From assembly GCA_041477065.1 (NCBI GenBank), contig JBGOUQ010000017.1:3669-67668 (forward strand): a stretch of DNA of 64,000 bases, in the 5' to 3' direction. The notes under the pieces are model-generated. The model had not been told where the DNA came from. It did not search any database and was given only the letters and a program-made list of their open reading frames with translations. Both the position numbers and the translations under genes were made by a program. Origin of the DNA: Gemmatimonadota bacterium. GTDB lineage: Bacteria; Gemmatimonadota; Gemmatimonadetes; Gemmatimonadales; GWC2-71-9. Each line of letters opens with the position of its first letter. Positions within the stretch are counted from its first letter, which is position 1. Positions 23,850 through 42,470 of the stretch are shown piece after piece.

Positions 23850-23909
23850 GCGGGCGATCCCGCCGCCGTGGGGCGGGAAATTGAAGGACAGCAGCAGCGT
23901 GGTCAGTGC

Positions 23910-25082: not shown

Positions 25083-25827
25083 CGGCGCGCCGCTGCCGCT
25101 CCCACAGGCGGGCATACTTGAGGAAGACGCTCACGGCGGCGAGCCCGCACAGGACGACGCCGTGCCACCCTTCGAGGATCCCCAGCTGCAGCACGTAGGT
25201 CCGGAAAAAGGTGAACGGCGGCCGCACGACCAGGTCACCGAAGCGCGCCCGACGACCGCGATCCCATAGGTCCTCCGCCCCCCAGGCCGCATACCGGGTG
25301 AGCTTCTCCAGGTGCTCGGCGAGGTCGCGGTAGGGCACGTGCTCCACGGGCGCGCGCAGCCGACCCACGTTCGCCACCGGCTCGAGCCCCTCGTGCACCC
25401 GCCGTTCCACGAATCGGCGGTCGCGGCGGAACAGGCGGACCGACCAGTCCGTGCCCCACCCCGCGTACCGCATGGTGCGTCCGAGATACACGTTGCGGCG
25501 CCTGACGGCGTAGGCTTCGTGCCGCGGGGCCGCCACGACCTCGGCAAGCTCGCGCTCCAGATCGGTGCCGATCCGCTCGTCGGCGTCGAGGGCGTACACC
25601 CATTCGTGCCGCGCCGCGGCGATTGCCTCGTTACGCTGACCGGCAATCGTTGCCGCCCGGCTCTCGATCACGCGGGCGCCTGCCCCCCGCGCCGCCACCA
25701 CGGTGCCGTCACTCGAGCCGCCATCCGCCACGATCACCTCGCCGGCCCAGGCGAGCTGCCCGATGCACTCCGCGATGTGCGCCGACTCGTTGAGGGTCGG
25801 AATGATGACCGTGAGCGGCGTCGGCAT
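25075..25827 (-). CDS. GT2 glycosyltransferase
   Basis: Within ORF 25075..26094. ATG 25827 (MPTPLTVIIPTLNESAHI...ADGGSSDGT...ALDADE). Confidence 0.85.
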   Translation of the reverse strand: MPTPLTVIIPTLNESAHIAECIGQLAWAGEVIVADGGSSDGTVVAARGAGARVIESRAATIAGQRNEAIAAARHEWVYALDADERIGTDLERELAEVVAAPRHEAYAVRRRNVYLGRTMRYAGWGTDWSVRLFRRDRRFVERRVHEGLEPVANVGRLRAPVEHVPYRDLAEHLEKLTRYAAWGAEDLWDRGRRARFGDLVVRPPFTFFRTYVLQLGILEGWHGVVLCGLAAVSVFLKYARLWERQRRADG

Positions 25828-25840
25828 GCGTTCCCTAATC

Positions 25841-26956
25841 CTAACGGGGGCGTTCCCCGCGGAGCAATGCGCGTCGCTCCAGCGCCTCCCGGTACACCTC
25901 CTCGGTTCGCTCGACGGTGCGCTCGAGGGTAAACGAGCGGCGCACGAGCTCGCGGCCGGCCCCGCCGAGCCGCGCCAGGGTAGGCGCATCGTCAAGCAGT
26001 CGCGCCAATGTCGCCGCCCACGCCTCGGCATCGCGCGGCGGGACGAGCACCCCGGTCGCATCCGGAGTGATGAGGTCGGGATTCCCGCCGGCATCGGAGG
26101 CGACGACCGGCACGCCGAGGGCCATCGCCTCGAGCAGGGCCTGCGACAAGCCCTCGATCCGGGAGGGGAGCGCCACCAGCGTGGCTAGCCGGTAGTAGGC
26201 GAGCGGGCGCTCGGTGAACGGAATGAACACGGCCCGGTGACGCGAGGGCAGCGCGGCGGTGAGGGCGGCGAGCTCGGCGTCGGGCTCAAGCCCGACGCAC
26301 GCCAGGACGACGGGGCGCGAGAGCTGCGCCAGCGCCCGCAGCACGACGTCCTGGTCCTTCCGGCGCGCGACCACCAGGATCACGGTGCGGTCGCCGACCT
26401 CGCCAAGCGCGGCGCGGGCGGCGGCGATCTCATCTCCGGTGGGCGGCGCGTCCACGCGGGCCACATCGATTCCGTTGGGCACGACGCGCAGCCGGCCGCC
26501 AGGATGGAGCCGCCGGCGCAGGGCGCGAGCCACCGCCGAGCTGACCGCGATCGTGCGGTCGGCGGCGTGCCCGACGGCGAAGAGCTCGAGGGGAGACGTG
26601 CGCGGCATGGTGCGACGGGTGACGACGAACGCCTGAGGCAGCCTGGCGCGCCACCGCAGCCAGGTGAGCGCGCGGCGGTCGAGCGTCGCGTGGCTGTTGA
26701 GCACGTCCACGCGCTCCCGCGCGATCACGTCGGCGAGCCGCGCCGCCAGGCGCTCGAGGCGCGAGAAGTCGAGCGGCACGTGGCCGATCCCCGCGTCGCG
26801 CGCCATTCGGGCGAGCAACGACTCCGCCCGGCATCCCAAGAGCACGCGGTGGCCGCGGTGCTGCAGGTGCTGGCCGAGGTTGAGAATCGATTGCGTCGAG
26901 CCGGCGCCGTCACCCTGGTGAGTCAGCTGCAGCACGGTGAGCGGGGCGTGTGGCAT
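25841..26956 (-). CDS. GT4 glycosyltransferase
   Basis: MPHAPLTVLQLTHQGDGAGSTQSI...; EGLSQALLEAMALGVPVVASDAGG. Confidence 0.85.
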   Translation of the reverse strand: MPHAPLTVLQLTHQGDGAGSTQSILNLGQHLQHRGHRVLLGCRAESLLARMARDAGIGHVPLDFSRLERLAARLADVIARERVDVLNSHATLDRRALTWLRWRARLPQAFVVTRRTMPRTSPLELFAVGHAADRTIAVSSAVARALRRRLHPGGRLRVVPNGIDVARVDAPPTGDEIAAARAALGEVGDRTVILVVARRKDQDVVLRALAQLSRPVVLACVGLEPDAELAALTAALPSRHRAVFIPFTERPLAYYRLATLVALPSRIEGLSQALLEAMALGVPVVASDAGGNPDLITPDATGVLVPPRDAEAWAATLARLLDDAPTLARLGGAGRELVRRSFTLERTVERTEEVYREALERRALLRGERPR

Positions 26957-26985
26957 GGCTCGAAGGTAGTTATACTCTACGCCCG

Positions 26986-27933
26986 ATGCACATCGCGGTC
27001 GCGTCGCATCACCGCCTGCCGGTCCAGGGCTACGGCGGCACCGAGCGGATCGTCGCCGCGCTCGTACGCGGGCTCGCGGCGCTGGGCCACCAGGTGACGC
27101 TGATCGCGGCCACGGGCACGAAGCTCCCCGAGGCGAGCGTCGTCGAGGTTCCCCCCAAGCGACTGCGCGACCCCGCGCTCGACTTCACCCGGCTGGTCCC
27201 GCCCGACGCCGATGTGCTGCACGTCCACTTCCCCGTCCGCAAGCCTCCCACAGGTGGGATGCCCTTTCTGCAGACGCTGTACGGCAACCTCAAGCAGGGC
27301 GAGCCGGTGCCGCCCAATACCGTCTTCCTCTCGCGCAACCACGCCGCGCGCAACGGCCGCGACGCGTTCGTGTATGCCGGACTCGACCCCGCGGAGTTCA
27401 TCTTCCGCGACCGCAAGGAGGACTACGACTTCTTCATCGGCCGGCTGCACAGCGCCAAGGGGTACCACTGGGCGGTCGAGGGCGCCAAGCGCTCGGGACG
27501 GCGCTTGATCCTGGCCGGCGGCTGGCGGCCTTCCTTCACGGGCCGGATCAAGTACGTGGGGGAGGTGGACGGGAAGGAGAAAGCCGAGCTGCTCGCCGGG
27601 GCCCGCTGCCTCTGGATGCCAGCGCTGTGGGACGAGCCATTCGGGCTCACCACCATCGAAGCGCTGTTCTCGGGCACCCCCGTATTGGGGACGCGGCGCG
27701 GCGCGTTGCCGGAAGTCCTCACTCCCGAGGTCGGCGCGCTGTGCGACACGCTGGACGAGATGATCGAAGCGTCCCGCGACATTCACACCCGGGTGCCCGC
27801 GGTATGCCGCGCCCACGCGGAGCGGTACTTCACCCACCGGGTGATGGCCGAGGAGTACCTCCGGGTGTACCGGCACCTGCGCGAGACTACCGTCCTGCCT
27901 GCGGGGCGGCCGACGCCGCAGGCGCCGCACTGA
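26986..27933 (+). CDS. GT4-like glycosyltransferase
   Basis: Within ORF 26950..27933. ATG 26986 (MHIAVASHHRLPVQGYGGTERIV). EPFGLTTIEALFSGTPVLG. Divergent from the previous gene across only 29 nt. Confidence 0.8.
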   Translation: MHIAVASHHRLPVQGYGGTERIVAALVRGLAALGHQVTLIAATGTKLPEASVVEVPPKRLRDPALDFTRLVPPDADVLHVHFPVRKPPTGGMPFLQTLYGNLKQGEPVPPNTVFLSRNHAARNGRDAFVYAGLDPAEFIFRDRKEDYDFFIGRLHSAKGYHWAVEGAKRSGRRLILAGGWRPSFTGRIKYVGEVDGKEKAELLAGARCLWMPALWDEPFGLTTIEALFSGTPVLGTRRGALPEVLTPEVGALCDTLDEMIEASRDIHTRVPAVCRAHAERYFTHRVMAEEYLRVYRHLRETTVLPAGRPTPQAPH

Positions 27934-27940
27934 GCCCCCC

Positions 27941-28201
27941 CTATTCGTCGGGGTCGTCCACGATGTCGCTGACGAAGGGGTCCTCGCCGGTTCTCGCCGT
28001 GATGACCAGCAGCCACCCGAGCGCCGCGTTGCCGACGCACGCCACCACGACCGCCACCCAACCCAACGCACCCGGGCACCTGCCGTTCGCGACACACCGG
28101 TAGATCGTCGCGCCCAGGAGGATCACGCCGGCGCCGGCGAGGCCCGGTCCGAGCACGCCGCCGAGGATCCGGAACGTGCGGCTCACCCGCTGCGGCCGCA
28201 T
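27941..28201 (-). CDS. small membrane protein (86 aa, two hydrophobic segments)
   Basis: Within ORF 27941..28381. ATG 28201 (MRPQRVSRTFRILGGVLGPGLAGAGVILLG...WVAVVVACVGNAALGWLLVI). Starts 6 nt after the upstream stop. Confidence 0.4.
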   Translation of the reverse strand: MRPQRVSRTFRILGGVLGPGLAGAGVILLGATIYRCVANGRCPGALGWVAVVVACVGNAALGWLLVITARTGEDPFVSDIVDDPDE

Positions 28202-28206
28202 CACAC

Positions 28207-29724
28207 TCACACGGCGGTCCTCTCGAGGAGGCGCTCGGCGCTCGCGACCGCGTGCAGCAAGCAAAACGGGTAGAAGTGAACCAGATGGCGGCCGAAGCCG
28301 GTGTGGATGATGAACAGCGTGCTCATGTGCGGCTGGCCCAGGAACGTGAGGGCCGCGTACGCGGCGTAGGTGGCGACCCACCCCGCCAGCCCGGCGAGCC
28401 CGAAGCGCCGTGCCAGTGCCGCGCGCGTTGCCTCACCCTCACCCCCCACCCCCCCCCCTCCTCCTCGACGCGCCACCCAGATCACCACGATCAGCCAGCT
28501 CCACGCGAACGCCCCGTAGCCGTAGTGGGAAAACACCTGCCCCTGTACGCCGTACGCCAGCCGTGCCATCGCCCGCAACGCGGACACCGCTGCTTCGGAT
28601 TGTGCGGCCAGTGTCGGGGCGAACAGCGCGGGCGCATGCACCGCCGCGGGCCGCAGCGTCCAGCTGAGGTATCCCACAGCCGCGCCGGCGAGCGGGGCCC
28701 ACAACCGCCAGTCGCGACGCTGGGGAGGAGACGCGAGCCAAATGAGCACGCCCATCGCCACGACGAATTCGGGAAGCCCGTCCCGGCGGATGAGCGCGAC
28801 CGCAGCCCCGGCCACCGCCCCGATCGTGAGCGCGAGCGCCCGCGTCGGGATGAGCGCGCCGTCATCGGTCGCCACAACGATCGCAACGGCGATCGCCAGC
28901 ATCACCGGCACGCCGGCGTAGGCCGTGATCTGGCCCTTGAGAACGTGGTCGGTGACCAGCAACCACACCAGCCCCCACGGGGCGAGGGCCGGTGCCACGC
29001 GCCGCAGGAGATAGTAGAACAGCAGTACGAAGGCACCGAACAGCAGCAGCGGGAGCAGGCGGCCCTGGAAGGTGGGATCGCCCACACCCATCCACAGTAT
29101 CACCGAGTGGAGCGGCGGGCGGGCGGGATCCAGGCAGTCGAATATCCCGCTCAGTGCTCCGCGCTCGGCGAACTTGAACGCCCGGCACGCCCAGATCTCC
29201 ACGGCGTCGGTGTAGTGATACGGAAACACGAGGTGCGGGACCTCGGCGAGGAAAAACGCCAGCGCGAGCCACAACGCGGGATGGACGCTTCGCGAGACGG
29301 CCGGCTCGGTGGCGGTCGTACGATCCTCAGATGGGGAGGGGCCAGTGCGGCGCACCCAGACGCCCGCGATGAAGGCGACGCCGAGCGCCACCCACGTGAC
29401 TGCGGGGGCAAGCCGACCCGTGGCGAGCGCCCAGCCGTAGTCGACGAGCGCGACAACCCAGGTAAGCGTCAGGAACCGAAGCGCCCACGCGGCCGCTGAG
29501 CGGTGGCCGCGGGCAGGGAGCCACCACCACGCGGCCAACGCGAGCAGCCCGCAGAGCAGCAGATCGGCGCCCAGTCCCGCCGACGGGCCCACCGGCCGGA
29601 CCCCCGCCGCCAGTCCTTGCTGGAACATCACGGCGGCGCGCCAGGTGCCGATGCCGACCTGCACGGCCGTGAGCAGGCCGAGGACGATCCAGGCCGCGCG
29701 CGATCGGCCGGCAGCGGCGGTCAC
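28207..29724 (-). CDS. polytopic membrane protein, GT-C-fold glycosyltransferase / O-antigen-polymerase-ligase-like (tentative)
   Basis: Within ORF 28207..30195. GTG 29724 (VTAAAGRSRAAWIVLGLLTAV...) lies 2 nt after the upstream stop. More than 10 hydrophobic segments. Loop motif YHYTDAVEIWACRAF. Confidence 0.5.
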   Translation of the reverse strand: MTAAAGRSRAAWIVLGLLTAVQVGIGTWRAAVMFQQGLAAGVRPVGPSAGLGADLLLCGLLALAAWWWLPARGHRSAAAWALRFLTLTWVVALVDYGWALATGRLAPAVTWVALGVAFIAGVWVRRTGPSPSEDRTTATEPAVSRSVHPALWLALAFFLAEVPHLVFPYHYTDAVEIWACRAFKFAERGALSGIFDCLDPARPPLHSVILWMGVGDPTFQGRLLPLLLFGAFVLLFYYLLRRVAPALAPWGLVWLLVTDHVLKGQITAYAGVPVMLAIAVAIVVATDDGALIPTRALALTIGAVAGAAVALIRRDGLPEFVVAMGVLIWLASPPQRRDWRLWAPLAGAAVGYLSWTLRPAAVHAPALFAPTLAAQSEAAVSALRAMARLAYGVQGQVFSHYGYGAFAWSWLIVVIWVARRGGGGGVGGEGEATRAALARRFGLAGLAGWVATYAAYAALTFLGQPHMSTLFIIHTGFGRHLVHFYPFCLLHAVASAERLLERTAV

Positions 29725-29725
29725 G

Positions 29726-30589
29726 TCAGACGAGCCGGTAGTTCCGGAACTCGAATACGCGCGCACCCGTGAGCCGCTCGATCCAGTCCGAGAGGTAGAA
29801 GCGGAGGTGGTCGGGCCGGAAGTGCCGCGGCCCGATGACGCGCTCGGGGTCGTGGGCACGCGCGGCGATCCAGTCGCGCGCGACGCTGGGATGCTCGCCG
29901 GCGAACGGCCGGAGCAATGGGAGCCAATCGAGGTACCCCTTCGCCTGCTCGCGCGCCGAGCGCTCTCGGCTCCAGGGATAGATAGTCTTGGAGATCTCGT
30001 ATTTCTCGCGGATGGCGTGCGCCGGCCGGGCCCATCCGTAGTGGAACATGGCCGCGTCGGTGACCCGTGCGCGGATCTTCCGGTAGCCGGGCCCGACGCG
30101 GAACCCTTGCGCCCCCTGGTAGGGGCGGATGTCCCGGTCGAGCCGGATGCAGCGCACCTCGCGGCGGTACCAGCGGCGGCTGGTCGCGACGGCATCGAAT
30201 CCGCCGTAGAAGTGCAGGTATTGCACGAGCAGGCCCTCGACGCGCTCGTCGCCGTCCCACTCCGCGACCTTTTCCTGGAGGATGCGGGCGCCCCGCTCGT
30301 GCAGCACCTCGTCGGCCTGGATGTAGATGCCCCAGCGGCCGCGGCAAGCGGCCATCGCCTTGCGGGTCTCGATGGACAGCATCTCGTTCTTTTTGGTGAA
30401 GTCCCACTCGCTGTCCACGATCTGGACGCGCGGGTCGGCCACCGACGCCACCAGGTCGCGCGTCTCGTCCTCGGACCTCCCCACGTTCACCACGACCTGG
30501 TCGCACACCTCCAGCACCGAGCGGATGGCCGGGACGATGGGGAAGTCGAGCTTGATCGCGTTGCGGACGATCGTGAAGCCGCACAGCAT
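29726..30589 (-). CDS. GT2-like nucleotide-diphospho-sugar transferase family protein
   Basis: MLCGFTIVRNAIKLDFPIVPAIRSVLEVCDQVVVNVGRSEDETRDLV...IYIQADEVLHE, typical of a widespread GT-A-like family. Confidence 0.65.
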   Translation of the reverse strand: MLCGFTIVRNAIKLDFPIVPAIRSVLEVCDQVVVNVGRSEDETRDLVASVADPRVQIVDSEWDFTKKNEMLSIETRKAMAACRGRWGIYIQADEVLHERGARILQEKVAEWDGDERVEGLLVQYLHFYGGFDAVATSRRWYRREVRCIRLDRDIRPYQGAQGFRVGPGYRKIRARVTDAAMFHYGWARPAHAIREKYEISKTIYPWSRERSAREQAKGYLDWLPLLRPFAGEHPSVARDWIAARAHDPERVIGPRHFRPDHLRFYLSDWIERLTGARVFEFRNYRLV

Positions 30590-30594
30590 CGCGG

Positions 30595-32397
<1,803 letters not shown>

Positions 32398-32399
32398 TC

Positions 32400-33974
32400 T
32401 CACCGGACTCCGCGGCGCGGCGTCAGCAGAGCCACCGGCAGGATCACCTCTTCGGGAGTCACCCCGCCGTGGAGGAACGAGCCGCGATACCGGGCTTGAT
32501 ATTCCCGAAGCTTGGTGGGGTAGACGAAGAAGCGGTCGCCGGTCGCGAGCAGCATCCGCACGCCGAGTCCCATCCCCGGGAGGCCGTACGACTTGAGATC
32601 CTCGACCAGGATGGACGACTCGGGATCCTCGGCGCGCAGGTCCTCGCCGAATTTGTAGCGGAGGTTGGCGGTCGCGTCCCGCTTCGCGTACACCGTGGCC
32701 GGGGTCTGGCAGTGGATCGAGCCGTGGTCGGTGGTCAGCAGGACGGGCACGCCGCGCCGCTCGGCCTCCTGCAGCGCCGCCAGCACGGGCGAGCGCTCGA
32801 ACCAAGTGCGCGTCAGCCCGCGCAGCGCGTCGGCGTCGCGCGCCACTTCGTAGAGGATCGCGCTCTCGGAGCGCCCGTGCGTCAGCTGGTCGATGAAGTT
32901 GAAGACCAGCGCCGTGACGCCGTCCTGGGCGAGGTGCGCCGGCAGCCGCCGCAGCAGGTCCCCGCCGTCCACGGAGCTGAACAGCTTCTCGTAGCGCACC
33001 GGCACCGGCTTCCCCATCAGGTCCTGGAGCTGCTCCGTGAGCAGCTCGGCCTCATGGGCGTTGAGGCTCTCCTCGTCGGAGGGGGCACCCCACCATTCGG
33101 GGTGGCGCGCCGCGATCTCCATCGGGAACATCCCGCTGAAGATGGAGTTGCGGGAGAACGGCGTGGCGGTCGGGACGATGCTGAAGTAGTGCGACTCTTC
33201 GACGTCGAACAGCGGCGTCACCAGGTCGCGCAGCGTCTCCCACTGGTCGAGCCGCAGGCAATCGACCACGATGAACAGCACCCGCCCGGTGGACTTCAGC
33301 ACCGGCACCAGGAACTCGGCGCCGACGTCCACCGAGAGCGGCGGCCGGTCCCCCTCGGGGTTCGCCAGCCATTTCGGGTAGTGCCGGCGGAAGAACTCGG
33401 CGAAGTCCTTGCGCAGGCTCTCCTGCAGGTTGCGCAGCGCTTCAGAGAGGCCGGGCTCGGCGGCCTCTGCGAGACGCACCTCCCAGCGGGTGAGCTCCAC
33501 GACCAGCTCGATCCACTCACGCCAGGCCATCGTCGCGCCGCGCCGCGCCGCGAGCTCGCGGAACCGCGTCACGAAGTCCCGCGCCAGGCGCTGCTGGCGG
33601 ATGCGGTCGCCTTCGAGCAGCCGGGTGACGACGGAGAGGATCTGCCGGGGATGCACCGGCTTGACGAGGTAGTCGTCCACCTCGATGCCGATCGCTTCTT
33701 TCAGCGTTCCCTCATCCTCGCTCTGCGTGACCATGACGACGGGCATGGCGGGATCGATGGCGCGGATCTCCCCCAGCAGCTCGAGACCGCGGCGGCCGGG
33801 CATCTGCTCGTCAAGCAGCACCACGCTGTAGGGTTGCCGGCGCAGCAGGGCCAGGGCGTCGTCTCCGTGCGCCGCCTGTTGCACGGAGAACCCCTGTTGT
33901 TCGAGGAACCGGCGGTGCGCCGCGAGACCTTCAACCTCGTCGTCGACCCAGAGAATGCTTTTCGGGCGGGGCAT
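32400..33974 (-). CDS. response regulator with C-terminal PglZ (alkaline-phosphatase-like) domain, PorX-like
   Basis: Within ORF 32400..34703. ATG 33974 (MPRPKSILWVDDEVEG...VVLLDEQMPG). PglZ-type motifs VLFIVVDCLRLDQ, TATPFSRNS, LLTTDHGS. Confidence 0.8.
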   Translation of the reverse strand: MPRPKSILWVDDEVEGLAAHRRFLEQQGFSVQQAAHGDDALALLRRQPYSVVLLDEQMPGRRGLELLGEIRAIDPAMPVVMVTQSEDEGTLKEAIGIEVDDYLVKPVHPRQILSVVTRLLEGDRIRQQRLARDFVTRFRELAARRGATMAWREWIELVVELTRWEVRLAEAAEPGLSEALRNLQESLRKDFAEFFRRHYPKWLANPEGDRPPLSVDVGAEFLVPVLKSTGRVLFIVVDCLRLDQWETLRDLVTPLFDVEESHYFSIVPTATPFSRNSIFSGMFPMEIAARHPEWWGAPSDEESLNAHEAELLTEQLQDLMGKPVPVRYEKLFSSVDGGDLLRRLPAHLAQDGVTALVFNFIDQLTHGRSESAILYEVARDADALRGLTRTWFERSPVLAALQEAERRGVPVLLTTDHGSIHCQTPATVYAKRDATANLRYKFGEDLRAEDPESSILVEDLKSYGLPGMGLGVRMLLATGDRFFVYPTKLREYQARYRGSFLHGGVTPEEVILPVALLTPRRGVR

Positions 33975-34031
33975 CGGGGCGAAAGCTAGTCCGACTGGCG
34001 GAGCGCGGCAACGCGCCGATACATTGCCCGC

Positions 34032-35027
34032 GTGCTGACCATCCTGTTGGTCCGCTTCAGCTCCATCGGGGACATCCTGCTGACCACGCCGCTGGTGCGC
34101 ACGCTGCGGCGCCGCCATGCCGAGGCGCGGCTGGTCTTCGTCACCAAACGCGCCATGGCCCCCCTCGTCGCCGACAACCCCCACCTCTCGCAGGTCGTGA
34201 CCCTGGAGCCCGACGAGCCGGTGCGCCACCTCGCCGAACGGCTCCGCCCCCTGAACGCCACACACGGCCTCGATCTGCACGGCAGCCTGCGCAGCGCGGC
34301 GCTGCGCCTGCTGGTGCGCGCCCAATGGAGCGGCTACTCCAAGCGCAAACTCGCGCGCACGCTGCTCATCGCCACGAAGCTCGACCGTTACGGCCGCCGC
34401 GTGAGCGTCGCCGAGCGCTACTTCGAGGCGGCGCGCGAGCTCGACGTCCGGCCCGACGGCGGCCCGCCCGAGTTCCACCTCGGCCCGGGGGCGCGCGAGC
34501 GCGCCGACGCCTGGCTGGCGAAGCGCGGCCTGGCGGGCGGCGCGCGCCTCGCCGCGCTCGCACCCGGGGCGGCGCACGCCACCAAACGCTGGCCGGTCGG
34601 CCACTGGATCGCACTCGCCGACCGGCTGCGCGCCGCGGGATTGACGCCCATCGTGCTCGGCGGCCCGGACGACCGCGGGCTCGCGCAGCAGCTCGCCGCC
34701 CATGCCGAGAGCGCAGCCGGCGAGTTCTCGCTCCAGGAAACCGGAGCGCTCCTGTCACGCGCGGCGGTGCTCGTGACCAACGACACCGGCGTGATGCACA
34801 TGGCGACCGGCGTCGGGACCCCGGTCGTCGCCCTGTTCGGACCGACCGTGGAGCAGTTCGGCTTCTTCCCATACGCGCCGGCGCCGAGCACGGTGCTCCA
34901 ACGTGATCTCGACTGCCGTCCCTGCTCCGCCATGGGCACCGCGACCTGCCCGCTCGGCCACCACCGCTGCCTCGCGGATATCGCGCCGGCCGACGTGATG
35001 CGGGCGGTGGGTGGAGCGGTGGCGTGA
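34032..35027 (+). CDS. GT9 glycosyltransferase (ADP-heptose:LPS heptosyltransferase-like)
   Basis: MLTILLVRFSSIGDILLTTPLVRTLRRRH...; GAAHATKRWP; VTNDTGVMHMA. Confidence 0.8.
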   Translation: MLTILLVRFSSIGDILLTTPLVRTLRRRHAEARLVFVTKRAMAPLVADNPHLSQVVTLEPDEPVRHLAERLRPLNATHGLDLHGSLRSAALRLLVRAQWSGYSKRKLARTLLIATKLDRYGRRVSVAERYFEAARELDVRPDGGPPEFHLGPGARERADAWLAKRGLAGGARLAALAPGAAHATKRWPVGHWIALADRLRAAGLTPIVLGGPDDRGLAQQLAAHAESAAGEFSLQETGALLSRAAVLVTNDTGVMHMATGVGTPVVALFGPTVEQFGFFPYAPAPSTVLQRDLDCRPCSAMGTATCPLGHHRCLADIAPADVMRAVGGAVA

Positions 35028-35407
35028 CGCAGGCGACCACGCTGGGCGAGGAACGCCTGATCGCGCTGCTCGCGGCCGCCGGGCGAGGACCCAAGCGCGA
35101 TGGCCTGTACGCGCTGTGGCTGGTGCTGCGCGCGGCCGAAGCGCTGCTTCCCCCACACCCGCTGGGAGGCCGGAGCCACCGGCGCCGTCTCCAGGCGCTC
35201 GACGCCCGGCTCGCCAGCCTGGCGTTGCCGGCGCCCCTCAAGCGGGCCCTGCTGGCCGCGCGGCAGCACCTCGAGCCTGCGACCGCCGGGGCCTCCGCGC
35301 TCGTGCTCTCCCAGCTGGTCGCGCCGGCCCGGGACGTGCTGGGCGCGGAAGCCGCGGACGCCATTGCGGGTGCCGCGCGCGCGGCCCGCGTACATTTATC
35401 GGCATGA
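35024..35407 (+). CDS. hypothetical Ala/Leu-rich helical protein (127 aa)
   Basis: GTG start in a GTGA overlap with the GT9 stop and an ATGA overlap with the next gene. G/C-rich third positions. The alternative frame (35011..) is an Arg/Pro/Gly-rich shadow. Confidence 0.5.
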   Translation: MTQATTLGEERLIALLAAAGRGPKRDGLYALWLVLRAAEALLPPHPLGGRSHRRRLQALDARLASLALPAPLKRALLAARQHLEPATAGASALVLSQLVAPARDVLGAEAADAIAGAARAARVHLSA

Positions 35408-36285
35408 GCACCCGGCGGCTGCAGAAGCGACCCTCCCTCGAGGGGCTGGTCCAGCAGGTGGATCAGCGCCGGCGGGGTGAAGTCACGGGGGACACGATCC
35501 CCTCGGGATTCGCCTCGCTCGACAAGTTCTTGGGCGGAGGGCTTCGGCGGCGCGACCTCATCGTGCTGGGCGGTGACGTCGGCGCGGGGAAGTCGGCGCT
35601 GGCGCTGGGGTTCGCGCTGCGGGTGGCGCAGCAAGGGACGGGGGTCGCGTATCTCTCGGGCGAGATGGACGAGGAGCGGCTGATGGAGCGCGCGCTCGCC
35701 ATCGAAGGCCGCGTGTCGGTGGACGAGCTGCGCGGAGGCGGCGGCGCGTTGCACGACCAGACGCGCGCCGGCATCGGCGCCGCAGCGGTGCGGCTACGCG
35801 GGCTGCCGCTCGCCATGCTGCCGCTCGCCGCCGACGACCTCGACGCGATGGCGGAGCGGCTCGATCCGCTGCGCCAGCTCGGCCTCGTGGTGATCGATTA
35901 CCTGCAGCTCGCGCCGCCGACGACGTCATCCGTCGCGCGCGCGAGCCAGGACGAAGATCTCGCCCTCGTGCTGCGGCGGCTCAAGGCGCTGGCGCTGGAG
36001 CGTCAGGTCGCGCTGGTGGTGGTGTCGCAGCTGCCGCGGTTCGCTCCCGCGCGCGAGAACCCGCGCCCGACCCTCGACGACTTCGGCCACCTCGGCGCCG
36101 TCAAGCAGCACGCCGACGTGGTGCTCGCGATCTTCCGGGAGGAGATGTACAACCCGGGCGGCGGGGTGGAAGGGGCGACCGAGCTGCTCGTCGCGAAGAA
36201 CCGCAACGGCCCAACGGGATTCGTGGACTTCTACTTCTACAGGCGCTGGATGCGGTTCGAGGACATGCTGGATCCCGACCGGTAG
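35404..36285 (+). CDS. DnaB-like helicase C-terminal (RecA-fold) domain protein lacking the DnaB N-terminal domain
   Basis: ATG 35404 (MSTRRLQKRPSLEGLV...IPSGFASLDKFLGGGL). Walker A GDVGAGKS. DnaB-specific VVIDYLQL, LKALALERQVALVVVSQL, VKQHADVVLAIFREEMY, LLVAKNRNGPTG. Only 293 aa. Confidence 0.8.
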   Translation: MSTRRLQKRPSLEGLVQQVDQRRRGEVTGDTIPSGFASLDKFLGGGLRRRDLIVLGGDVGAGKSALALGFALRVAQQGTGVAYLSGEMDEERLMERALAIEGRVSVDELRGGGGALHDQTRAGIGAAAVRLRGLPLAMLPLAADDLDAMAERLDPLRQLGLVVIDYLQLAPPTTSSVARASQDEDLALVLRRLKALALERQVALVVVSQLPRFAPARENPRPTLDDFGHLGAVKQHADVVLAIFREEMYNPGGGVEGATELLVAKNRNGPTGFVDFYFYRRWMRFEDMLDPDR

Positions 36286-36374
36286 ACGCCGGACCCTCGC
36301 CCGGCCGTACCGCGTGCAACCAATCCCAGGCCGGCGGTGTCGCATCGAAGGACCGCCCTTCCTGGGAGTCACCC

Positions 36375-37829
36375 ATGTCGCATCGTCGCTGCGCCGCCGC
36401 CCTTGCCCTGCTGGCCCTTCTCCCCACCACCGCGCGGGCCCAGCACCTCGCCTCCCGCATCGCCGCTGCCGGCGACGGCGCGGTCACCTTCAGCTACGCC
36501 TCCCGTCCCGGAGCCTGCGGAGACGGGCGCAGCCTGTACATCGCCGGCCTCGGCGCGCACGGCGGCACATTCATCTTCTCGCCTGACGGCAACGGGCTCT
36601 TCTCCGGTTGGACCGACGAGACCGCGACCTTCGCGGGGTGCGTCCCGGGACCCGCTCGGGTCCGCCTGAGCATCCGGGACGGCCGCGTGAGCGCGTTGCG
36701 CCCCGCGGTCGGCGGTCGGAGCGCCGCCCCCGCAGGCACGACGGACCTTGGGACCGTCGGCGCGGCGGAAGCGGCGACGTATCTGCTCGACCTGGCGCGA
36801 ACGGGACCGGAATCCGTGTGCACCGCTGCGCTCGTGGCCGCCGCACTCGCCGACAGCGTGCGGATCGCCACCCCGCTCCTCGCGATCGCCCGGGACCGAA
36901 CCCTGGCGCCCACCAATCGGGAGCACGCCCTCAAGTGGGTCGGCTGGACCGCCGGAATGGAGGGGAGCACGACCGCGGACGCGGGCGTGCGCGCCATCGC
37001 GGCGGATGAGACCGACGTGCCCGAGGTGCGCGAACGCGCGATCCGCGTGGTCGCTCATCCGGCCGGCGACGCATTCTTGCGCGACCTGTACCGCCGGCTC
37101 ACCGCGACTTCACTCAAGGAGCGGGTGATCCGCGTCCTGGGCGAATCGCCCCTGCCCGCTCCCGCGAACGTCGAGTGGCTCGAGCGCCTGGCGCGGACCG
37201 AGAGCGAGAGTCAGTCGCTGCGCGAGCGCGCCATTCGGGTGCTCGGAGAGCTGGGAGAGACGGGACGCCTGCGCGCGCTGTACGCTGGACTATCGTCCGA
37301 CGAGCTCAAGGACCGCGCGGTCCGGGTCGCCGCCGACGGCGACAAGGACGGGGGCCCCGACGCCGCGACGATCGCGTGGATTAAGGGGCTGGCGGCTGCG
37401 CCGAGTGAGCCCATGGCCGCGCGCGATCGGGCGATCCGCGTGCTGGGGGAGCAGGGCGAAGTGCCGTACCTGCGCGACCTGTATCCGCGGCTCGACCGGC
37501 CTGACCTGCAGGATCGAGTACTGCGGGTGATCGGGGAGGTCAGCGGCGAAGAGAACCAGCGGTTTCTGTGGACGGTGGTGCGCGACGTCCGCCAGCCGAC
37601 GGAGCGCCGCGACCACGCGCTGCGCAGTCTGGCGGCGGCGGGGGTCCCGACCGCCGCGCTGGTCGCCGTGTACGACTCGCTTCCGAGTCGCGAGCTGAAG
37701 GAGAGGCTGATCGGGCTGTTGTCCGAGCGCGGGGACGCGGCGGCGCGAGAGAAGCTCGGCGCCATCGCCCGGCAGGATCCCGACGCGGACCTGCGGCGGC
37801 GCGCGCAGCGCCGGCTCGGCGGGCGCTAG
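36375..37829 (+). CDS. exported HEAT/PBS-lyase-type repeat protein
   Basis: Signal-like MSHRRCAAALALLALLPTTARAQ. Repeated units ..RERAIRVLGE.., ..LKDRAVRV.., ..ARDRAIRVLGEQGEVPYLRDLY...LQDRVLRVIGE.., ..LKERLIGLLSERGD.. Confidence 0.6.
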   Translation: MSHRRCAAALALLALLPTTARAQHLASRIAAAGDGAVTFSYASRPGACGDGRSLYIAGLGAHGGTFIFSPDGNGLFSGWTDETATFAGCVPGPARVRLSIRDGRVSALRPAVGGRSAAPAGTTDLGTVGAAEAATYLLDLARTGPESVCTAALVAAALADSVRIATPLLAIARDRTLAPTNREHALKWVGWTAGMEGSTTADAGVRAIAADETDVPEVRERAIRVVAHPAGDAFLRDLYRRLTATSLKERVIRVLGESPLPAPANVEWLERLARTESESQSLRERAIRVLGELGETGRLRALYAGLSSDELKDRAVRVAADGDKDGGPDAATIAWIKGLAAAPSEPMAARDRAIRVLGEQGEVPYLRDLYPRLDRPDLQDRVLRVIGEVSGEENQRFLWTVVRDVRQPTERRDHALRSLAAAGVPTAALVAVYDSLPSRELKERLIGLLSERGDAAAREKLGAIARQDPDADLRRRAQRRLGGR

Positions 37830-38240
37830 CTACTTCACCGTATCGGTCTTCGCCGAATCCACCGCGGCGCCGATCAGCGTGTAAGTCGTGCCCGGCCCGC
37901 CCGCGTTGGGCCGCAGGGTGATCCACAACGGCTTGTCGCCCTTTTGCGCGAAGAGGCTGACCGTCCCGTCCGGGGCTTTGGCGTCGCTCTGCAGCTCCCA
38001 CCCGTTCAGCGGCAGCATGCGGTGGTACCACGCGGCGACGGTGTCCACCGACGCGGGGGTGCTGAACACCATCTGACCGGCGTCGGTGCCCGCCTGCATG
38101 CTCACGGGACTCGACAAGGGATAGGCCAGCACGCCGCGCATGGCCTGGCTCAGGACGGCGCGGGATTCGGCCTGCCCGCGGCGCTCGCAGCCGGCGGCGA
38201 CACCCGCGATGGCGGCGAGCAGAATGAGGGTTCGCGTCAT
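37830..38240 (-). CDS. lipoprotein, function unknown
   Basis: Within ORF 37830..38321. ATG 38240 (MTRTLILLAAIAGVAAGC, lipobox-like). Confidence 0.6.
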   Translation of the reverse strand: MTRTLILLAAIAGVAAGCERRGQAESRAVLSQAMRGVLAYPLSSPVSMQAGTDAGQMVFSTPASVDTVAAWYHRMLPLNGWELQSDAKAPDGTVSLFAQKGDKPLWITLRPNAGGPGTTYTLIGAAVDSAKTDTVK

Positions 38241-38309
38241 GGGTGCGAATGGTACCGGTGGCGGACCCGGTCGGTCAAGTTGTAAGTTGCGTACAACCGC
38301 GAGGTTGGT

Positions 38310-39059
38310 ATGGCCGGCCATAGCAAATGGAAACAGATCAAGCGCAAAAAGGCAGTGACCGACGCCCGCCGCGGGGCCGCCTTCACTAAGCTCATCCGGG
38401 AGATCACCATCGCCGCCAAGCAGGGTGGCGGCGACCCCGCCGGCAACGCCCGGCTCCGCACCGCCATCGACGCGGCCAAAGCCGAGAACATGCCGTTGGA
38501 CAACATCGAGCGCGCCGTCAAGAAGGGCACCGGCGAGCTCGAGGGTGTGACCTACGAAGAAGTGACCTACGAGGGCTACGGCCCGGGCGGCGCGGCGATC
38601 CTAATCCACGCGACCACCGACAACGCCAACCGCACCGTCGCCGAGATCCGCTTCGTGTTCTCGCGCCACGGCGGCAACCTGGGCGCGACCAATTCCGTGG
38701 CGTGGATGTTCGACCGCAAGGGCCAGATCCTGGTCGACGCGACCCGGGCAGACGAGGACATCACGATGGAAGCGGCGCTCGACGCCGGAGCGGAGGATAT
38801 GGTCCGCGAGGGCGATGTGTTCCTGATCACGACGCCGCCCAACCAGCTGCACGCCGTGCACGAAGCGCTGAAGGCCAAGCGTCTCCCCGTGCAGAGCGCC
38901 GAGATCGCCATGCACCCCAAGAGCACGGTGAAGGTCGACGGCGGCGAGGCCAAGAAGCTGCTGGCGCTGATCGAGGGGCTCGAGGAAATGGACGACGTCG
39001 CCAAAGTGTTCTCCAACTTCGATATCGACGCCGAGGCGATGGCCGCGGTGACGGGATGA
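38310..39059 (+). CDS. yebC: YebC/PmpR family DNA-binding regulator
   Basis: MAGHSKWKQIKRKKAVTDARRGAAFTKLIREITIAAKQGGGDPAGNARLR. Confidence 0.95.
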   Translation: MAGHSKWKQIKRKKAVTDARRGAAFTKLIREITIAAKQGGGDPAGNARLRTAIDAAKAENMPLDNIERAVKKGTGELEGVTYEEVTYEGYGPGGAAILIHATTDNANRTVAEIRFVFSRHGGNLGATNSVAWMFDRKGQILVDATRADEDITMEAALDAGAEDMVREGDVFLITTPPNQLHAVHEALKAKRLPVQSAEIAMHPKSTVKVDGGEAKKLLALIEGLEEMDDVAKVFSNFDIDAEAMAAVTG

Positions 39060-39060
39060 C

Positions 39061-39534
39061 GTGAGAGTGCTGGGCATCGACCCGGGCACCTCCGTCACGG
39101 GCTACGGCGTGGTGGACGCGGAGCCGGGGAGGGCCGGTGGCCGCCTCGTCGAATGCGGCGTCCTGCGATTCGCGCGGCGCAGCTCCCTCCCCCATCGGCT
39201 CCACGAGCTGCACAAGGGGATCACCGAGTTGATTACACGGCACCGGCCGGACGCGCTCGCCCTGGAAGACGCCTTCTATCAGAAGAACGTCCGCACCACC
39301 CTGGTCCTGGGACACGCCCGGGGCGTCGTGCTGCTCGCCGCCGAGCAGGAGGGGCTCAAGATCGCGGAATACTCGCCCGCCACGGTGAAGAAGACCGTGG
39401 TCGGTGCGGGGGGCGCCGGCAAGAGCCAGGTCGCCGCCATGGTGGCGCGGCTGCTCCGCCTTCAGCAGCCGCCCCGCCCCTCCGATGCGGCCGACGGCGT
39501 GGCCGTGGCCCTCACCCACATCATCCGGTCGTGA
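39061..39534 (+). CDS. ruvC: crossover junction endodeoxyribonuclease RuvC
   Basis: VRVLGIDPGTSVTGYGVVD...; LEDAFYQKNV; ADGVAVALTH. GTG start 1 nt after the yebC stop. Confidence 0.95.
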   Translation: MRVLGIDPGTSVTGYGVVDAEPGRAGGRLVECGVLRFARRSSLPHRLHELHKGITELITRHRPDALALEDAFYQKNVRTTLVLGHARGVVLLAAEQEGLKIAEYSPATVKKTVVGAGGAGKSQVAAMVARLLRLQQPPRPSDAADGVAVALTHIIRS

Positions 39535-40151
39535 TCGCGACCGTGGCCGGCCGCCTCGCGGCCAAGTCGGCCGACCGGGTCGTGGTCCAGACGAACGGCG
39601 GCGTCGGCTACGAAATCGTGGTGCCGCTCGGCGTAATGGAGCGGCTGCCCGCCGTGGGCGAGCAGGTCACGCTCGCCACGGAGCTCGTCGTGCGGGAAGA
39701 CGGCTGGGCGCTGTACGGGTTCCTCGTGGAAGCGGAGCGCCACTTTTTTCAGCGTCTCACCTCAGTCTCGGGGGTCGGTCCCAAGCTCGCCATCGCGTTG
39801 CTCTCGGCGCTCGGCGCGGGACGGGGAGCGAAGGCGATCCAGGAGAAGAACATCGCCCTGCTCTCTTCGGTGAGCGGCATCGGCAAGAAGACCGCCGAGC
39901 GGCTAGCGCTCGAGCTGGCCGACAAGGTCGGCGAGTTCGTGAGTGCGGCCGGGGAGGCAAGCGGAGCCGCCGCCCCGCCGCCGGGAGGGGGGGGCGCCGG
40001 CGAAACCGCCCTCCGGGCGCTGGAGCGGCTCGGGTACGGTCCGGCGGAGGCCGATCGGGCGCTGCGGCAGGCGCTGGCCGAGAACGGCGGCGGCGCCGGG
40101 GACCCGGAGCAGCTGGTGCGCCGCGCCCTCCACCTCCTCACTCAGAGATGA
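39531..40151 (+). CDS. ruvA: Holliday junction DNA helicase subunit RuvA
   Basis: GTG 39531 (GTGA overlap). [32 protein letters not shown]; HhH motifs VSGVGPKLA and [12 protein letters not shown]. Confidence 0.9.
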
Positions 40152-40327
40152 CGATGTCCACCACCACCGCGGAATGGATCTGCACGCGCTGCGGCTCGAC
40201 CAACCGCAGGCTCGTGCCCGAAACGGCGACGCGGGCGGAGGACGTCTGCGTGACCTGCCACGCCAGGCACGAGCTGGAGTCGGACGCGCGGCCCGTGCGG
40301 TGGCGCGCCCGGCCTGTTTCGAGATGA
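40148..40327 (+). CDS. small zinc-ribbon protein (59 aa) between ruvA and ruvB
   Basis: ATGA overlaps at both ends (with the ruvA stop and the ruvB start). [42 protein letters not shown]... carries CxxC-x19-CxxC. Third codon positions are almost all G/C. Confidence 0.6.
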
Positions 40328-41355
40328 CCCGCGCCGAGATCACCACGCCGGAGGTTCTCCCCGAGGAGCGCGTGACGGACGCGGCGCTCCGGCCCTCGCG
40401 GCTCGACGAGTTCGTCGGCCAGGCCAAGGTCAAGGAGTCTCTCCAGATCGCGATCGACGCCGCCAAGCAGCGCCGCGAGCCGCTCGACCACGCGCTGTTC
40501 TTCGGGCCGCCCGGTCTCGGCAAGACAACGCTCGCGCTCCTCATGGCCCACGAGATGGGGGTGAACATCCGCATCACCTCCGGTCCGGTGCTGGAGCGCC
40601 CGGGGGACCTCGTCGGCATGCTGACGGCGCTCACGGCGGGAGATATTCTCTTCATCGACGAAGTCCACCGCCTGCGACCGGTGCTCGAGGAATTCCTCTA
40701 CCCAGCCATGGAGGAGTTCCGGGTGGACGTTCGGATCGCGGACGGCCCGCACGCGCAGACGATCCCGATGCCGCTCGAGCGCTTCACGCTCATCGGCGCC
40801 ACGACGCGCTTCGGCCTGCTGACCCCGCCGATGCGCGCCCGGTTCGGCCTGGTGGAGCGGCTGTCCTACTACCCGCCCGACGACCTCGCCCAGATCATCA
40901 CGCGCTCAGCCAAGATCCTCGGCGTCAGCGCCGACGCGGCGGGAGTGGCGGAGATCGCCCGGCGCAGCCGCGGCACGCCGCGCGTCGCCAACCGGCTGCT
41001 GAAGCGCGTGCGCGACTACGCCCAGGTGCGCGCCAGCGGCAGCATCACCGGTGCGGTCGCCGTGGAGGCGCTGAAGCGCCTCGACGTGGACGAGTTCGGG
41101 CTCGACGACATGGACGGCCGCATCCTGAAGACCATCATCGAGCAATTCGACGGCGGCCCGGTGGGGCTCAGCACCGTGGCGGCCGCGGTCGGCGAGGACG
41201 CCGGGACGCTGGAAGAGGTGTACGAGCCGTTTCTGATGCAGCAGGGCTTCCTCGCCCGCACGGCGCGGGGGCGCTGCGCGACGGCCTCGGCATATCGCCA
41301 CTTCGGCTTCACGCCGCCGAAGCGCGCCGAGCAGCCGAACATCTTCGACGGGTGA
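40324..41355 (+). CDS. ruvB: Holliday junction DNA helicase RuvB
   Basis: ATG 40324. [39 protein letters not shown]. Confidence 0.95.
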
Positions 41356-41361
41356 CCAAAC

Positions 41362-41435
41362 TGCGGATTGTGGATTGTGGATTGCGGATTTGAGGGTGGA
41401 GCGTCCAATCCGCAACCCGCAATCCGAAATCCGCA
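41362..41435. repeat. heptamer-built palindromic element (4 x TGYGGAT, 18-nt spacer, 4 x inverted ATCCGMA-type)
   Basis: Direct reading: tgcggat tgtggat tgtggat tgcggat ...18 nt... atccgca acccgca atccgaa atccgca. It fills the ruvB-queA gap. Confidence 0.85.
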
Positions 41436-41444
41436 ATCTGCTCC

Positions 41445-42470
41445 ATGCGCCTCTCCGACTTCGACTACCCTCTCCCCCCCGAGCGGATCGCCCAAGTGCC
41501 GCTCCCCGACCGCGCCGCCAGCCGCCTGCTCGTGCTGGAACGATCCACGGGCGCGTTGCGGCACCTGCAATTCGCCAACCTCCCCGAGCTCATCGCACCG
41601 GGCGACGCCCTCGTCCTCAACGCCTCGCGCGTGATCCCCGCGCGCCTGCGCGGCCAGCGCGAGCTGGGCGCCCCCGCCGAGCTGCTCCTATTGAAGGAAG
41701 GAGCGGACGGTGATTGGCTCGCCCTGGGGCACCCGGGCGGCAAGCTCAAGCCGGGGCGCCGGATCACCATCGGACCTGAAAGCGTGGTGGAGATCGTTGG
41801 GGTGCTGGGCGGCGGGGTGCGCCGGGTGCGCTTCGTCGGGAATCTGGACGCCCGCGCCACGATCGCCCGCTACGGCGAGGTGCCCCTGCCGCCGTACATT
41901 CACCGCCGCCCCGACGACGCGGACCGGGAGCGCTACCAGACGGTGTATGCCGAGCATGAGGGCAGCGTCGCGGCGCCGACGGCGGGGCTGCATTTCACGA
42001 CGGCGCTGCTCGATCGGCTCGTCGCCATGGGCGTCGCGGTGGCGCGGCTCGACCTCCACGTGGGACTCGGCACCTTCAAGCCGGTGGTGGTCGAGGACGT
42101 GGAACGGCACGTGATGCATCCGGAGTCGTACGCGGTGAGTGAGGAGGCGGCGACGGCGATCAACGCGCGCCGCGCGGCGGGCGGGAAGGTCTGGGCGGTG
42201 GGGACGACGGTTGCCCGCACCCTCGAAACCGTCGCCGACGCCGCCGGGCGCGTGCGTGCCGGCGCGGGTGAAACGAGCCTGTTCATCCGGCCGCCCTACA
42301 CTTTCCGCGCCGTGGACCGGCTGATCACGAACTTCCACCTGCCGCGCTCGACGCTGCTGATGCTGGCGTGCGCCTTCGGCGGTTACGAGCGGGTGATGGG
42401 AGCGTATCAGGAGGCGGTGGCGCAGGGGTACAGGTTCTACTCGTATGGCGATGCGATGGCGATCGTCTGA
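41445..42470 (+). CDS. queA: S-adenosylmethionine:tRNA ribosyltransferase-isomerase
   Basis: MRLSDFDYPLPPERIAQ...SRLLV; PLPPYI; TNFHLPRSTLLML. Confidence 0.95.
   Translation: MRLSDFDYPLPPERIAQVPLPDRAASRLLVLERSTGALRHLQFANLPELIAPGDALVLNASRVIPARLRGQRELGAPAELLLLKEGADGDWLALGHPGGKLKPGRRITIGPESVVEIVGVLGGGVRRVRFVGNLDARATIARYGEVPLPPYIHRRPDDADRERYQTVYAEHEGSVAAPTAGLHFTTALLDRLVAMGVAVARLDLHVGLGTFKPVVVEDVERHVMHPESYAVSEEAATAINARRAAGGKVWAVGTTVARTLETVADAAGRVRAGAGETSLFIRPPYTFRAVDRLITNFHLPRSTLLMLACAFGGYERVMGAYQEAVAQGYRFYSYGDAMAIV

Follow-up and report, generated by a model that had tools for sequence, protein, structure and literature searches.

Does a DnaB-type motor domain that has lost its N-terminal domain, and whose gene is coupled to one for a small basic protein, represent a replicative helicase split in two or a different machine? 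This question is raised by a 64,000-nucleotide (nt) stretch, here called the window, of contig JBGOUQ010000017.1 (positions 3,669 to 67,668, forward strand) of the Gemmatimonadota assembly GCA_041477065.1. In the window, three overlapping genes encode a GT9-type glycosyltransferase (GT9), a protein of 127 amino acids (aa), designated o127 here, and a 293-aa protein related to the C-terminal domain of DnaB, designated DnaBc here. The N-terminal collar of DnaB is thought to be integral to the helicase: it docks primase, stabilizes the ring, and switches ring conformations. A sequence-only reading of the locus had proposed o127 as a split-off, highly diverged N-domain and, as an alternative, the pair as a new ATPase module outside bulk replication. 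In its strongest form, the first proposal ("split DnaB") makes DnaBc the sole replicative helicase, with o127, as a separate non-homologous subunit or an N-domain diverged past recognition, supplying the collar and primase docking in trans. We found that DnaBc is a DnaB-family variant with a partner of no known family; the locus is very probably not a split DnaB, and it is not a functional trio with GT9. The explanation that we prefer, held with middling confidence, is an accessory, DnaB-derived ring ATPase that acts with a dedicated basic partner, o127, on DNA outside bulk replication.

DnaBc was matched by DnaB_C (PF03796, 2.9e-50) over the full profile, at positions 2-255 of 255. Its best PDB sequence match was Geobacillus DnaB 2r6a (8.8e-40), in an alignment running from residue 177, just past the linker helix, to the C-terminus. 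The model TIGR00665 was matched at positions 158-433 only. The N-terminal domain PF00772 is absent from the polypeptide: DnaBc starts at TIGR00665 position 158, and the frame upstream of it is non-coding. These comparisons bear out the initial description of the 293-aa protein as a DnaB C-domain that begins at the linker helix and lacks the N-domain. The TIGR00665 score of 185 bits is under half of the equivalog cutoff (385.25), which speaks against a split DnaB. All motifs quoted in the sequence-only reading (GAGKS, VVIDYLQL, VVVSQL, KQHADVVLAIFREEMY, VAKNRNGPTG, and DDFGHLG) were found. Homologs of DnaBc are 281-300 aa long in 120 loci and 282-307 aa long in divergent loci, and the ratio of nonsynonymous to synonymous substitutions (dN/dS) is 0.04-0.18.

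Residue conservation was assessed in 116 unique family sequences, and DnaBc was compared with canonical DnaBs, plus a Methylibium plasmid protein, in alignment A3 (Table 1). In the linker segment, S11, L12, L15, V16, V19, and D20 are conserved; the linker helix of canonical DnaB packs on the neighbouring subunit, as in structures 2r6a and 4esv. Since both the linker helix and a complete ATPase site are kept, DnaBc is, by homology, most likely a hexameric, ATP-burning ring. The context of Walker A is GGDVGAGKS rather than the canonical ARPxMGKT, and the IDD motif is lost. The replacement of (S/T)DLRESG by DDFGHLG, first noticed in the sequence, was confirmed in the alignment. Across the family, this loop reads D-D-(F/Y)-G-x-(L/M)-G, with D226, G228, and G231 near-invariant; the canonical Arg position is always Gly, and the canonical Glu position is variable. 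In Geobacillus DnaB 4esv, the Arg and the backbone amides of the (S/T)DLRESG loop hold single-stranded DNA (ssDNA). With its ssDNA-contact loop rebuilt, DnaBc probably grips its substrate differently from DnaB. In the same DNA-loop region, R217, R221, and P222 are invariant, and K234 is invariant or nearly so. The most conserved stretch of DnaBc is its C-terminal motif, even in a lineage of 50% identity; canonical DnaB does not conserve this motif.

DYLQL has become DPLPAL, DPLQAL, or DSLQAV in six divergent loci (L162, L163, L165, L168, L171, and L172). In the Gemmatimonadaceae-type lineage, whose DnaBc is 50% identical, SQL has become TSHL or TTPL, so that the sensor Gln is His or Pro. In the same lineage, the Walker A Lys, the catalytic Glu, the Arg finger, and LYFY..W.RFEDM.DPDR are fixed. 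Because helicase motifs drift while the ATPase residues and the C-terminal motif do not, the pattern suggests that selection in divergent DnaBc acts more on ATP turnover and on a putative docking motif than on classical helicase coupling. The lost loop Arg and the sensor Gln that one sublineage does not conserve also count against a split DnaB, even though the catalytic residues are invariant and DnaBc evolves as slowly as its housekeeping neighbours, as a replicative helicase might.

Table 1 Coordinates of features at the o127-DnaBc locus (positions in the window)
Feature	Position	Strand	Description
GT9	34032-35027	+	331 aa; PF01075 Glyco_transf_9, 6e-32
GGAG, Shine-Dalgarno-like	35013-35016	+	Ahead of the o127 start; direct sequence reading
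GTGA overlap, GT9 stop/o127 start	35024-35027	+	Direct sequence reading
o127	35024-35407	+	127 aa; Ala/Leu/Arg-rich, all-helical, very basic (isoelectric point, pI, ~11.4); no Pfam match
ATGA start/stop overlap, o127/DnaBc	35404-35407	+	Translational coupling; direct sequence reading
DnaBc	35404-36285	+	293 aa; ATG at 35404; PF03796 DnaB_C, 2.9e-50
Linker-helix segment, residues 11-22, SLEGLVQQVDQR	35434-35469	+	Lines up with the segment preceding the canonical C-domain (A3)
Walker A, GGDVGAGKS, residues 56-64	35569-35595	+	G62, K63, and S64 invariant (116 sequences)
Catalytic Glu, E87 (SGEM; canonical FSLEM)	35662-35664	+	Invariant
Walker B region, LVVIDYLQL, residues 161-169	35884-35910	+	D165 invariant; adjoining YLQL varies in the divergent lineage
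Altered DNA-contact loop, DDFGHLG, residues 225-231	36076-36096	+	Replaces (S/T)D(L/I)RESG
Arginine-finger motif, K265-N-R267 (KNRNG; canonical KQRNG)	36196-36204	+	K265 and R267 invariant
C-terminal motif, D-(L/F)-YFY-x-x-W-(M/L)-RFEDM-(L/V)-DP-(D/E)-R	36226-36282	+	Family-specific
Response regulator with PglZ domain, left slot border	32400-33989	-	PF00072 and PF08665; flanks the slot in almost all loci
yebC, ruvC, ruvA, ruvB, queA, right slot border	38310-42470	+	Pfam assignments

The three linked open reading frames (ORFs) and their GTGA and ATGA overlaps lie at exactly the coordinates first read. The window (G+C 71%) has the same sequence as contig JBGPUK010000008.1 of the Gemmatimonadota metagenome-assembled genome (MAG) GCA_041491145.1, on which the NCBI and JGI gene callers called the same three ORFs. 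A frameshift that, once corrected, would merge the region into an ordinary full-length dnaB was ruled out by codon-position G+C and by the 120 loci in which each of the two ORFs is intact. The o127 frame has G+C of 0.86/0.59/0.86 by codon position, the coding pattern expected in this genome. The DnaBc frame is open upstream (35011-35403), with a non-coding pattern of 0.87/0.86/0.60. Because that upstream extension is non-coding and the o127 frame is coding, no frameshift rebuilds a full dnaB. No promoter or terminator was found in 33700-36600, and searches for Rfam families and tRNAs throughout the window were likewise negative.

Whether o127 is a DnaB N-domain in disguise was addressed by sequence, profile, and fold. 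Even with a threshold as lax as E<=10, PF00772 matched none of 53 diverse members of the o127 family. In hhalign, the o127 profile reached a probability of 0.2% against seven canonical DnaB N-domains (from Deinococcota, Actinomycetota, Cyanobacteriota, and Pseudomonadota). A search of 1.84 billion representative proteins with the o127 profile returned 140 representatives (50% clustering), nearly all standalone and 120-140 aa long, with no canonical DnaB and no genuine fusion; three long matches (P0241, P0358, and P0368) that looked like fusions proved on reading to be mis-called or frame-shifted sequences. The AlphaFold2 (AF2) model of o127 has a predicted local distance difference test (pLDDT) score of 93 and six long helices of 12-19 residues. 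Foldseek found no PDB match to this model (best E 0.86, template modelling score < 0.4) and none among the BFVD viral models, and the family profile gave nothing below E 0.18 against PDB sequences. The identification of o127 as an N-domain is rejected by all of these approaches (Pfam, hhalign, PDB-sequence profile search, and Foldseek against PDB and BFVD), and the proposal of a diverged N-domain that had split off is not supported. o127 resembles PF00772 in being all-helical, of roughly comparable size, and encoded upstream of a DnaB C-domain; it differs in being strongly basic, in its six long helices, and in the lack of any detectable sequence, profile, or fold similarity, a lack that also argues against a split DnaB. 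The joint length of 420 aa (127 + 293) is near that of canonical DnaB (437-468 aa), and it had been taken to favour the split. The arithmetic holds, and the agreement in length is a coincidence, without homology behind it.

The 127-aa ORF is real, as first read, and of unknown family: it is intact in relatives, is under purifying selection (dN/dS 0.02-0.25), and had no match in Pfam, NCBIfam, PHROG, or PADLOC. The family comprises 660 homologs. Close homologs span 124-133 aa, and an alignment of 32 members has 46 invariant columns. Where they are named, all homologs of o127 and DnaBc belong to Gemmatimonadales, Gemmatimonadetes, or Gemmatimonadaceae. o127 is thus the founder of an uncharacterized family that is confined to Gemmatimonadales. 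The median pI is 11.3 for o127 and 5.7 for DnaBc, and the two charges are complementary.

The pair was followed in three sets of loci: 80 species-representative genome loci; 69 metagenome contigs, retrieved with a distant o127 subfamily (35-50% identity); and seven contexts of a remoter subfamily (~25% identity), named Gemmatimonadales or Gemmatimonadaceae. o127 lies directly 5' of DnaBc in the 80 genome loci, in the 69 metagenome loci, and in six of the seven remoter contexts. The exceptions to co-occurrence are two loci in which DnaBc is lost and two uninformative contig ends. In 120 loci, the two ORFs run their full length without stops, in agreement with the co-occurrence and intact frames expected of a genuine pair; 36 of these loci have an intergenic gap of -4 nt, and ~90 have one of <=13 nt. 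Given the pairing, the tight spacing, and the low dN/dS, o127-DnaBc is a conserved unit under selection: an uncharacterized two-gene module specific to the Gemmatimonadales, which are soil bacteria. Universal presence in the clade and close coupling would also suit a split DnaB. In four loci (L007, L008, L010, and L037), 700-860 bp of extra DNA separates o127 from DnaBc. A hidden N-domain was considered for this DNA and rejected, as the two inserts inspected (L007, 5331-5996; L037, 5228-5969) hold one or two small lipoprotein-like genes. The inserts of L007 and L037 break the translational coupling of o127 and DnaBc; both genes stay intact.

Two lineages have lost DnaBc from the slot. In L108 (contig Ga0255054_10019476, 560-740, compared with L106), a 781-bp frame-breaking deletion has removed 92% of DnaBc. 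The first few and the last 22 DnaBc codons remain, the junction has a microhomology of 1-2 nt, and o127 (134 aa) and yebC are intact. In L164 (JGI Ga0643524_0002135, 8001-9240), an intact 139-aa o127-like gene is followed 77 nt on by yebC. No DnaBc or DnaB-like gene lies within this 16-kb locus. Its o127-like protein has entries on a pair of contigs with largely the same neighbours, of which the longer has 641 kb. In both L108 and L164, DnaBc may have moved elsewhere in the genome. Disruption of neighbouring genes is rare (1-2% of loci) and never takes the form of a deletion like that in L108. A frameshift in L119 and a 32-codon gap in L139 were considered as further losses and discounted, because the disruption rate of the neighbours is the same 1-2%.

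With DnaBc lost in two lineages and o127 kept, DnaBc is better explained as an accessory paralog than as the replicative helicase; the losses, as read at the slot loci, favour this reading. The alternative that the sequence-only reading had offered, an ATPase module outside bulk replication, is the one that the evidence favours. That DnaBc is the sole replicative helicase seems to us very unlikely, and we hold the split-DnaB proposal equally so. The closest solved relatives of DnaBc are cellular replicative DnaBs rather than phage helicases, which is what that proposal would predict; the deletion of DnaBc in L108 and its absence from the L164 slot are not. Inteins in DnaB (COG0305) have been reported in Gemmatimonadetes (PMC4760082, Table 1), and all DnaBc homologs seen are 281-307 aa long. 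An intein-bearing DnaB in the phylum, beside a family in which every member has ~290 aa, is a further point against a split DnaB. Gemmatimonas aurantiaca, the representative of the phylum in a survey, has DciA, the usual helicase operator (PMC5109545, Supplementary Data 1). A tblastn search against plasmids for a canonical dnaB returned no Gemmatimonadota record, and the literature offered indirect hints only. A two-piece replicative helicase could also be imagined in which DnaBc is the motor and o127 a non-homologous or diverged subunit that acts as the collar. The losses in L108 and L164 would then be relocation or assembly error, and we rate this version as slightly less credible again.

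The third gene is a neighbour rather than a partner. Its first identification as a GT9 heptosyltransferase-like enzyme is supported by PF01075 (6e-32); its best NCBI model, TIGR02195 (heptosyltransferase type II), scored 125.9 bits, below the cutoff of 134.6. Most close relatives carry a coupled GT9 gene. The slot holds no GT9, and o127-DnaBc is kept, in L071-76, in L079-80, in about half of the metagenome loci, and in all Gemmatimonadaceae-type loci. Because GT9 is dispensable in the slot, the trio is not a unit, and the coupling to a lipopolysaccharide enzyme, which had seemed unexpected, is local gene packing. The idea of a functional trio therefore falls on synteny. The coupling of GT9 to the pair is incidental and comes from the close spacing of genes where an envelope-biosynthesis cluster ends. 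Upstream, positions 22716-32400 of the window hold an envelope-polysaccharide cluster with four GT4 glycosyltransferases, one GT2, one weak GT2-like protein, and an MsbA-type ATP-binding cassette (ABC) exporter; a 12-transmembrane-like membrane protein without a Pfam match is encoded at 28207-29499. GT9 looks like an outlying member of this cluster.

The slot itself has a constant order: an msbA-type ABC transporter gene (-), a response regulator with PglZ (-), GT9 where present, o127, DnaBc, variable genes, and yebC-ruvC-ruvA-ruvB-queA (+). The interval from DnaBc to yebC varies from 0 to 3 kb. In many relatives, yebC begins 20-150 nt past DnaBc on the same strand; in the window, as in many further loci, DnaBc and yebC-ruvCAB are separated by unrelated genes, of which some are on the opposite strand. 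The window encodes here a secreted HEAT-repeat protein of 484 aa, in which an 'ERAIRVLGE' unit recurs (36375-37829, +), and has a 163-aa lipoprotein-like gene (37830-38321, -). The interval is empty in many relatives, and it holds a tetratricopeptide repeat/CsgG-like gene and a 350-aa unknown in Gemmatimonadaceae-type loci. No neighbour is better conserved than the response regulator-PglZ protein, with 68-93% identity across the clade; its gene is transcribed divergently from the module, and we take its architecture to resemble that of PorX of type IX secretion.

How might the preferred accessory module work? We suppose that DnaBc arose as a DnaB-derived paralog in which the N-terminal collar and primase-binding domain was lost and the linker helix and the inter-subunit ATPase site were kept. 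DnaBc would assemble through the linker helix and hydrolyse ATP at inter-subunit sites completed by R267, and the ring would translocate on, or remodel, nucleic acid through its rebuilt central loop. o127 would be made stoichiometrically with DnaBc via translational coupling. It would bind DnaBc, for which the conserved acidic C-terminal motif is a candidate site, and serve the ring as its adaptor, loader, or regulator. In this capacity, it may bring the acidic ring to nucleic acid or control the ring, as a non-homologous stand-in for the N-domain or for a helicase loader. We would place the module in an accessory process on DNA, for example repair, recombination, or fork restart, rather than in bulk chromosome replication. 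The same-strand position upstream of yebC-ruvCAB in many genomes hints weakly at recombination or fork repair.

Four observations weigh against this mechanism. The persistence of o127 without DnaBc in L108 and L164 means that the role of o127 is perhaps not wholly dependent on DnaBc. The change of the SQL sensor Gln to His or Pro in the divergent lineage fits a classical helicase cycle poorly. The AF2 model of DnaBc alone had a pLDDT of 42, though its alignment was similar in depth and diversity to that of o127, so that ring formation is argued from homology only. As synteny across the clade extends to the entire region, proximity to ruvCAB is not independent evidence of a pathway.

The drift in DnaBc also invites a reading in which it has left DNA. 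DnaBc would then be a RecA-fold ring ATPase that works as a KaiC-like switch or remodeller, with o127 as its substrate or regulator, perhaps linked to the envelope. Such a role would explain a rewritten DNA-contact loop, drift of the sensor and of the surroundings of Walker B in one lineage, and a C-terminal motif that is the most conserved part of the protein. There are weak KaiC/AAA_25 Pfam matches, and the left neighbours are envelope genes (the MsbA-type ABC transporter, glycosyltransferases, and the response regulator-PglZ). We nevertheless consider it unlikely, as DnaBc resembles DnaB far more than KaiC (2.9e-50 vs 9.7e-8); R217, R221, P222, and K234 of the DNA-loop region are invariant or nearly so; a very basic partner (pI 11) suits nucleic-acid binding; and the envelope genes are on the opposite strand or, like GT9, dispensable.

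The origin of the pair bears on its role as well. No relatives of o127 or DnaBc were found in 2.9 million IMG/VR contigs, and the PADLOC defence models gave matches at the P-loop level only, the best being 4.3e-5 over 32 residues. A phage or defence origin was rejected on these two results. No integrase, repeats, or other mobile-element genes lie near the pair, and DnaBc scored 140 bits against cellular DnaB and 92 bits against phage G40P. Ancient domestication may nevertheless have occurred, because N-domain-less DnaB-like proteins are known from mobile elements; duplication within the lineage followed by loss of the N-domain is at least as likely.

Set out in full, the domestication account holds that the locus is an ancient phage or plasmid replication module, comprising a small loader or inhibitor and an N-domain-less helicase, like SPP1 G39P-G40P or the RecA-core helicases of plasmids and phages. 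The module would have become chromosomally fixed, with a role in loading at special sites or none in host DNA metabolism. In SPP1, genes 39 and 40 place a small protein gene directly ahead of the helicase gene, and a small helical protein gene just upstream of a helicase is the usual phage layout. The best PHROG match of DnaBc is the DnaB-like replicative helicase phrog_19 (4.9e-53), and proteins of the expected kind exist: a 299-aa DnaB_C-only protein beside helix-turn-helix (HTH) and HNH genes on a Methylibium plasmid, and RecA-core-only proteins of mycobacteriophages (PMC4523182). What makes the account improbable, in our judgement, is the lack of IMG/VR relatives of either protein and of mobile-element genes nearby, the identical chromosomal slot across the clade under strong purifying selection, the greater closeness of DnaBc to cellular DnaB than to G40P (140 vs 92 bits), and an o127 without a PHROG family, viral fold, or PDB fold.

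The locus matters in several respects. It holds a derivative of a cellular DnaB without the collar, kept under selection across an order, with a small partner of no known fold; o127 defines a new protein family. If DnaBc is an accessory helicase, it offers a new, tractable case of the re-use of a replicative motor, possibly in repair or restart next to ruvCAB. To our knowledge, the N-terminal collar docks primase and gates the ring in all other bacteria; if DnaBc were the replicative helicase, it would break a rule that has held so far for all bacteria. Homologs of DnaBc are labelled 'replicative DNA helicase' by JGI and 'DnaB-like helicase C-terminal domain-containing protein' by NCBI. With the JGI label on proteins of ~290 aa, automated replication-gene inventories of Gemmatimonadota MAGs may count the wrong gene, and the real dnaB could go unseen in MAG analyses.

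Compared with DnaB (TIGR00665; structures 2r6a and 4esv from Geobacillus and 6bbm from E. coli), DnaBc is 31-35% identical in the C-domain over ~270 residues of alignment A3. Both have a linker helix, Walker A and B motifs, a catalytic Glu, and an arginine finger, and the QxxD region that follows the DNA loop is shared as well. DnaBc differs in having no N-domain, and hence no known primase-docking collar, in its DDFG-x-LG loop, in its own RFEDMLDP C-terminal motif, and in having been lost in two lineages.

The second comparison is with the DnaB-family helicases of mobile elements that lack the N-domain, of which RSF1010 RepA is one. Like DnaBc, they consist of the RecA core with or without the linker. 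Others are mycobacteriophage RecA-core proteins and truncated Wildcat gp80; the RecA core of a DnaB-family protein can unwind DNA by itself, and an N-terminally truncated helicase retains this activity (PMC4523182). The 299-aa DnaB_C-only protein of Methylibium petroleiphilum plasmid RPME01 (L082:2444-3343) has a linker helix and a canonical DLRDSG loop. Its neighbours are HTH-regulator, dCMP-deaminase, and HNH-endonuclease genes, with no o127-like gene among them, and it shows independently that a mobile element can carry a DnaB without the N-domain. These helicases are carried by phages and plasmids, whereas DnaBc is chromosomal, occupies a fixed core slot across the order, and has motifs of its own.

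The third comparison concerns the partner. The genes of SPP1 G39P, lambda P, DnaC/DnaI, and DciA resemble that of o127 in that a small protein gene sits just 5' of, and is coupled in translation to, that of a DnaB-type ring ATPase. o127 lacks an AAA+ domain, unlike DnaC/DnaI, and has no Pfam match to DUF721/DciA or other loaders. By analogy with these systems, a role as a loader or regulator would be the natural guess for o127.

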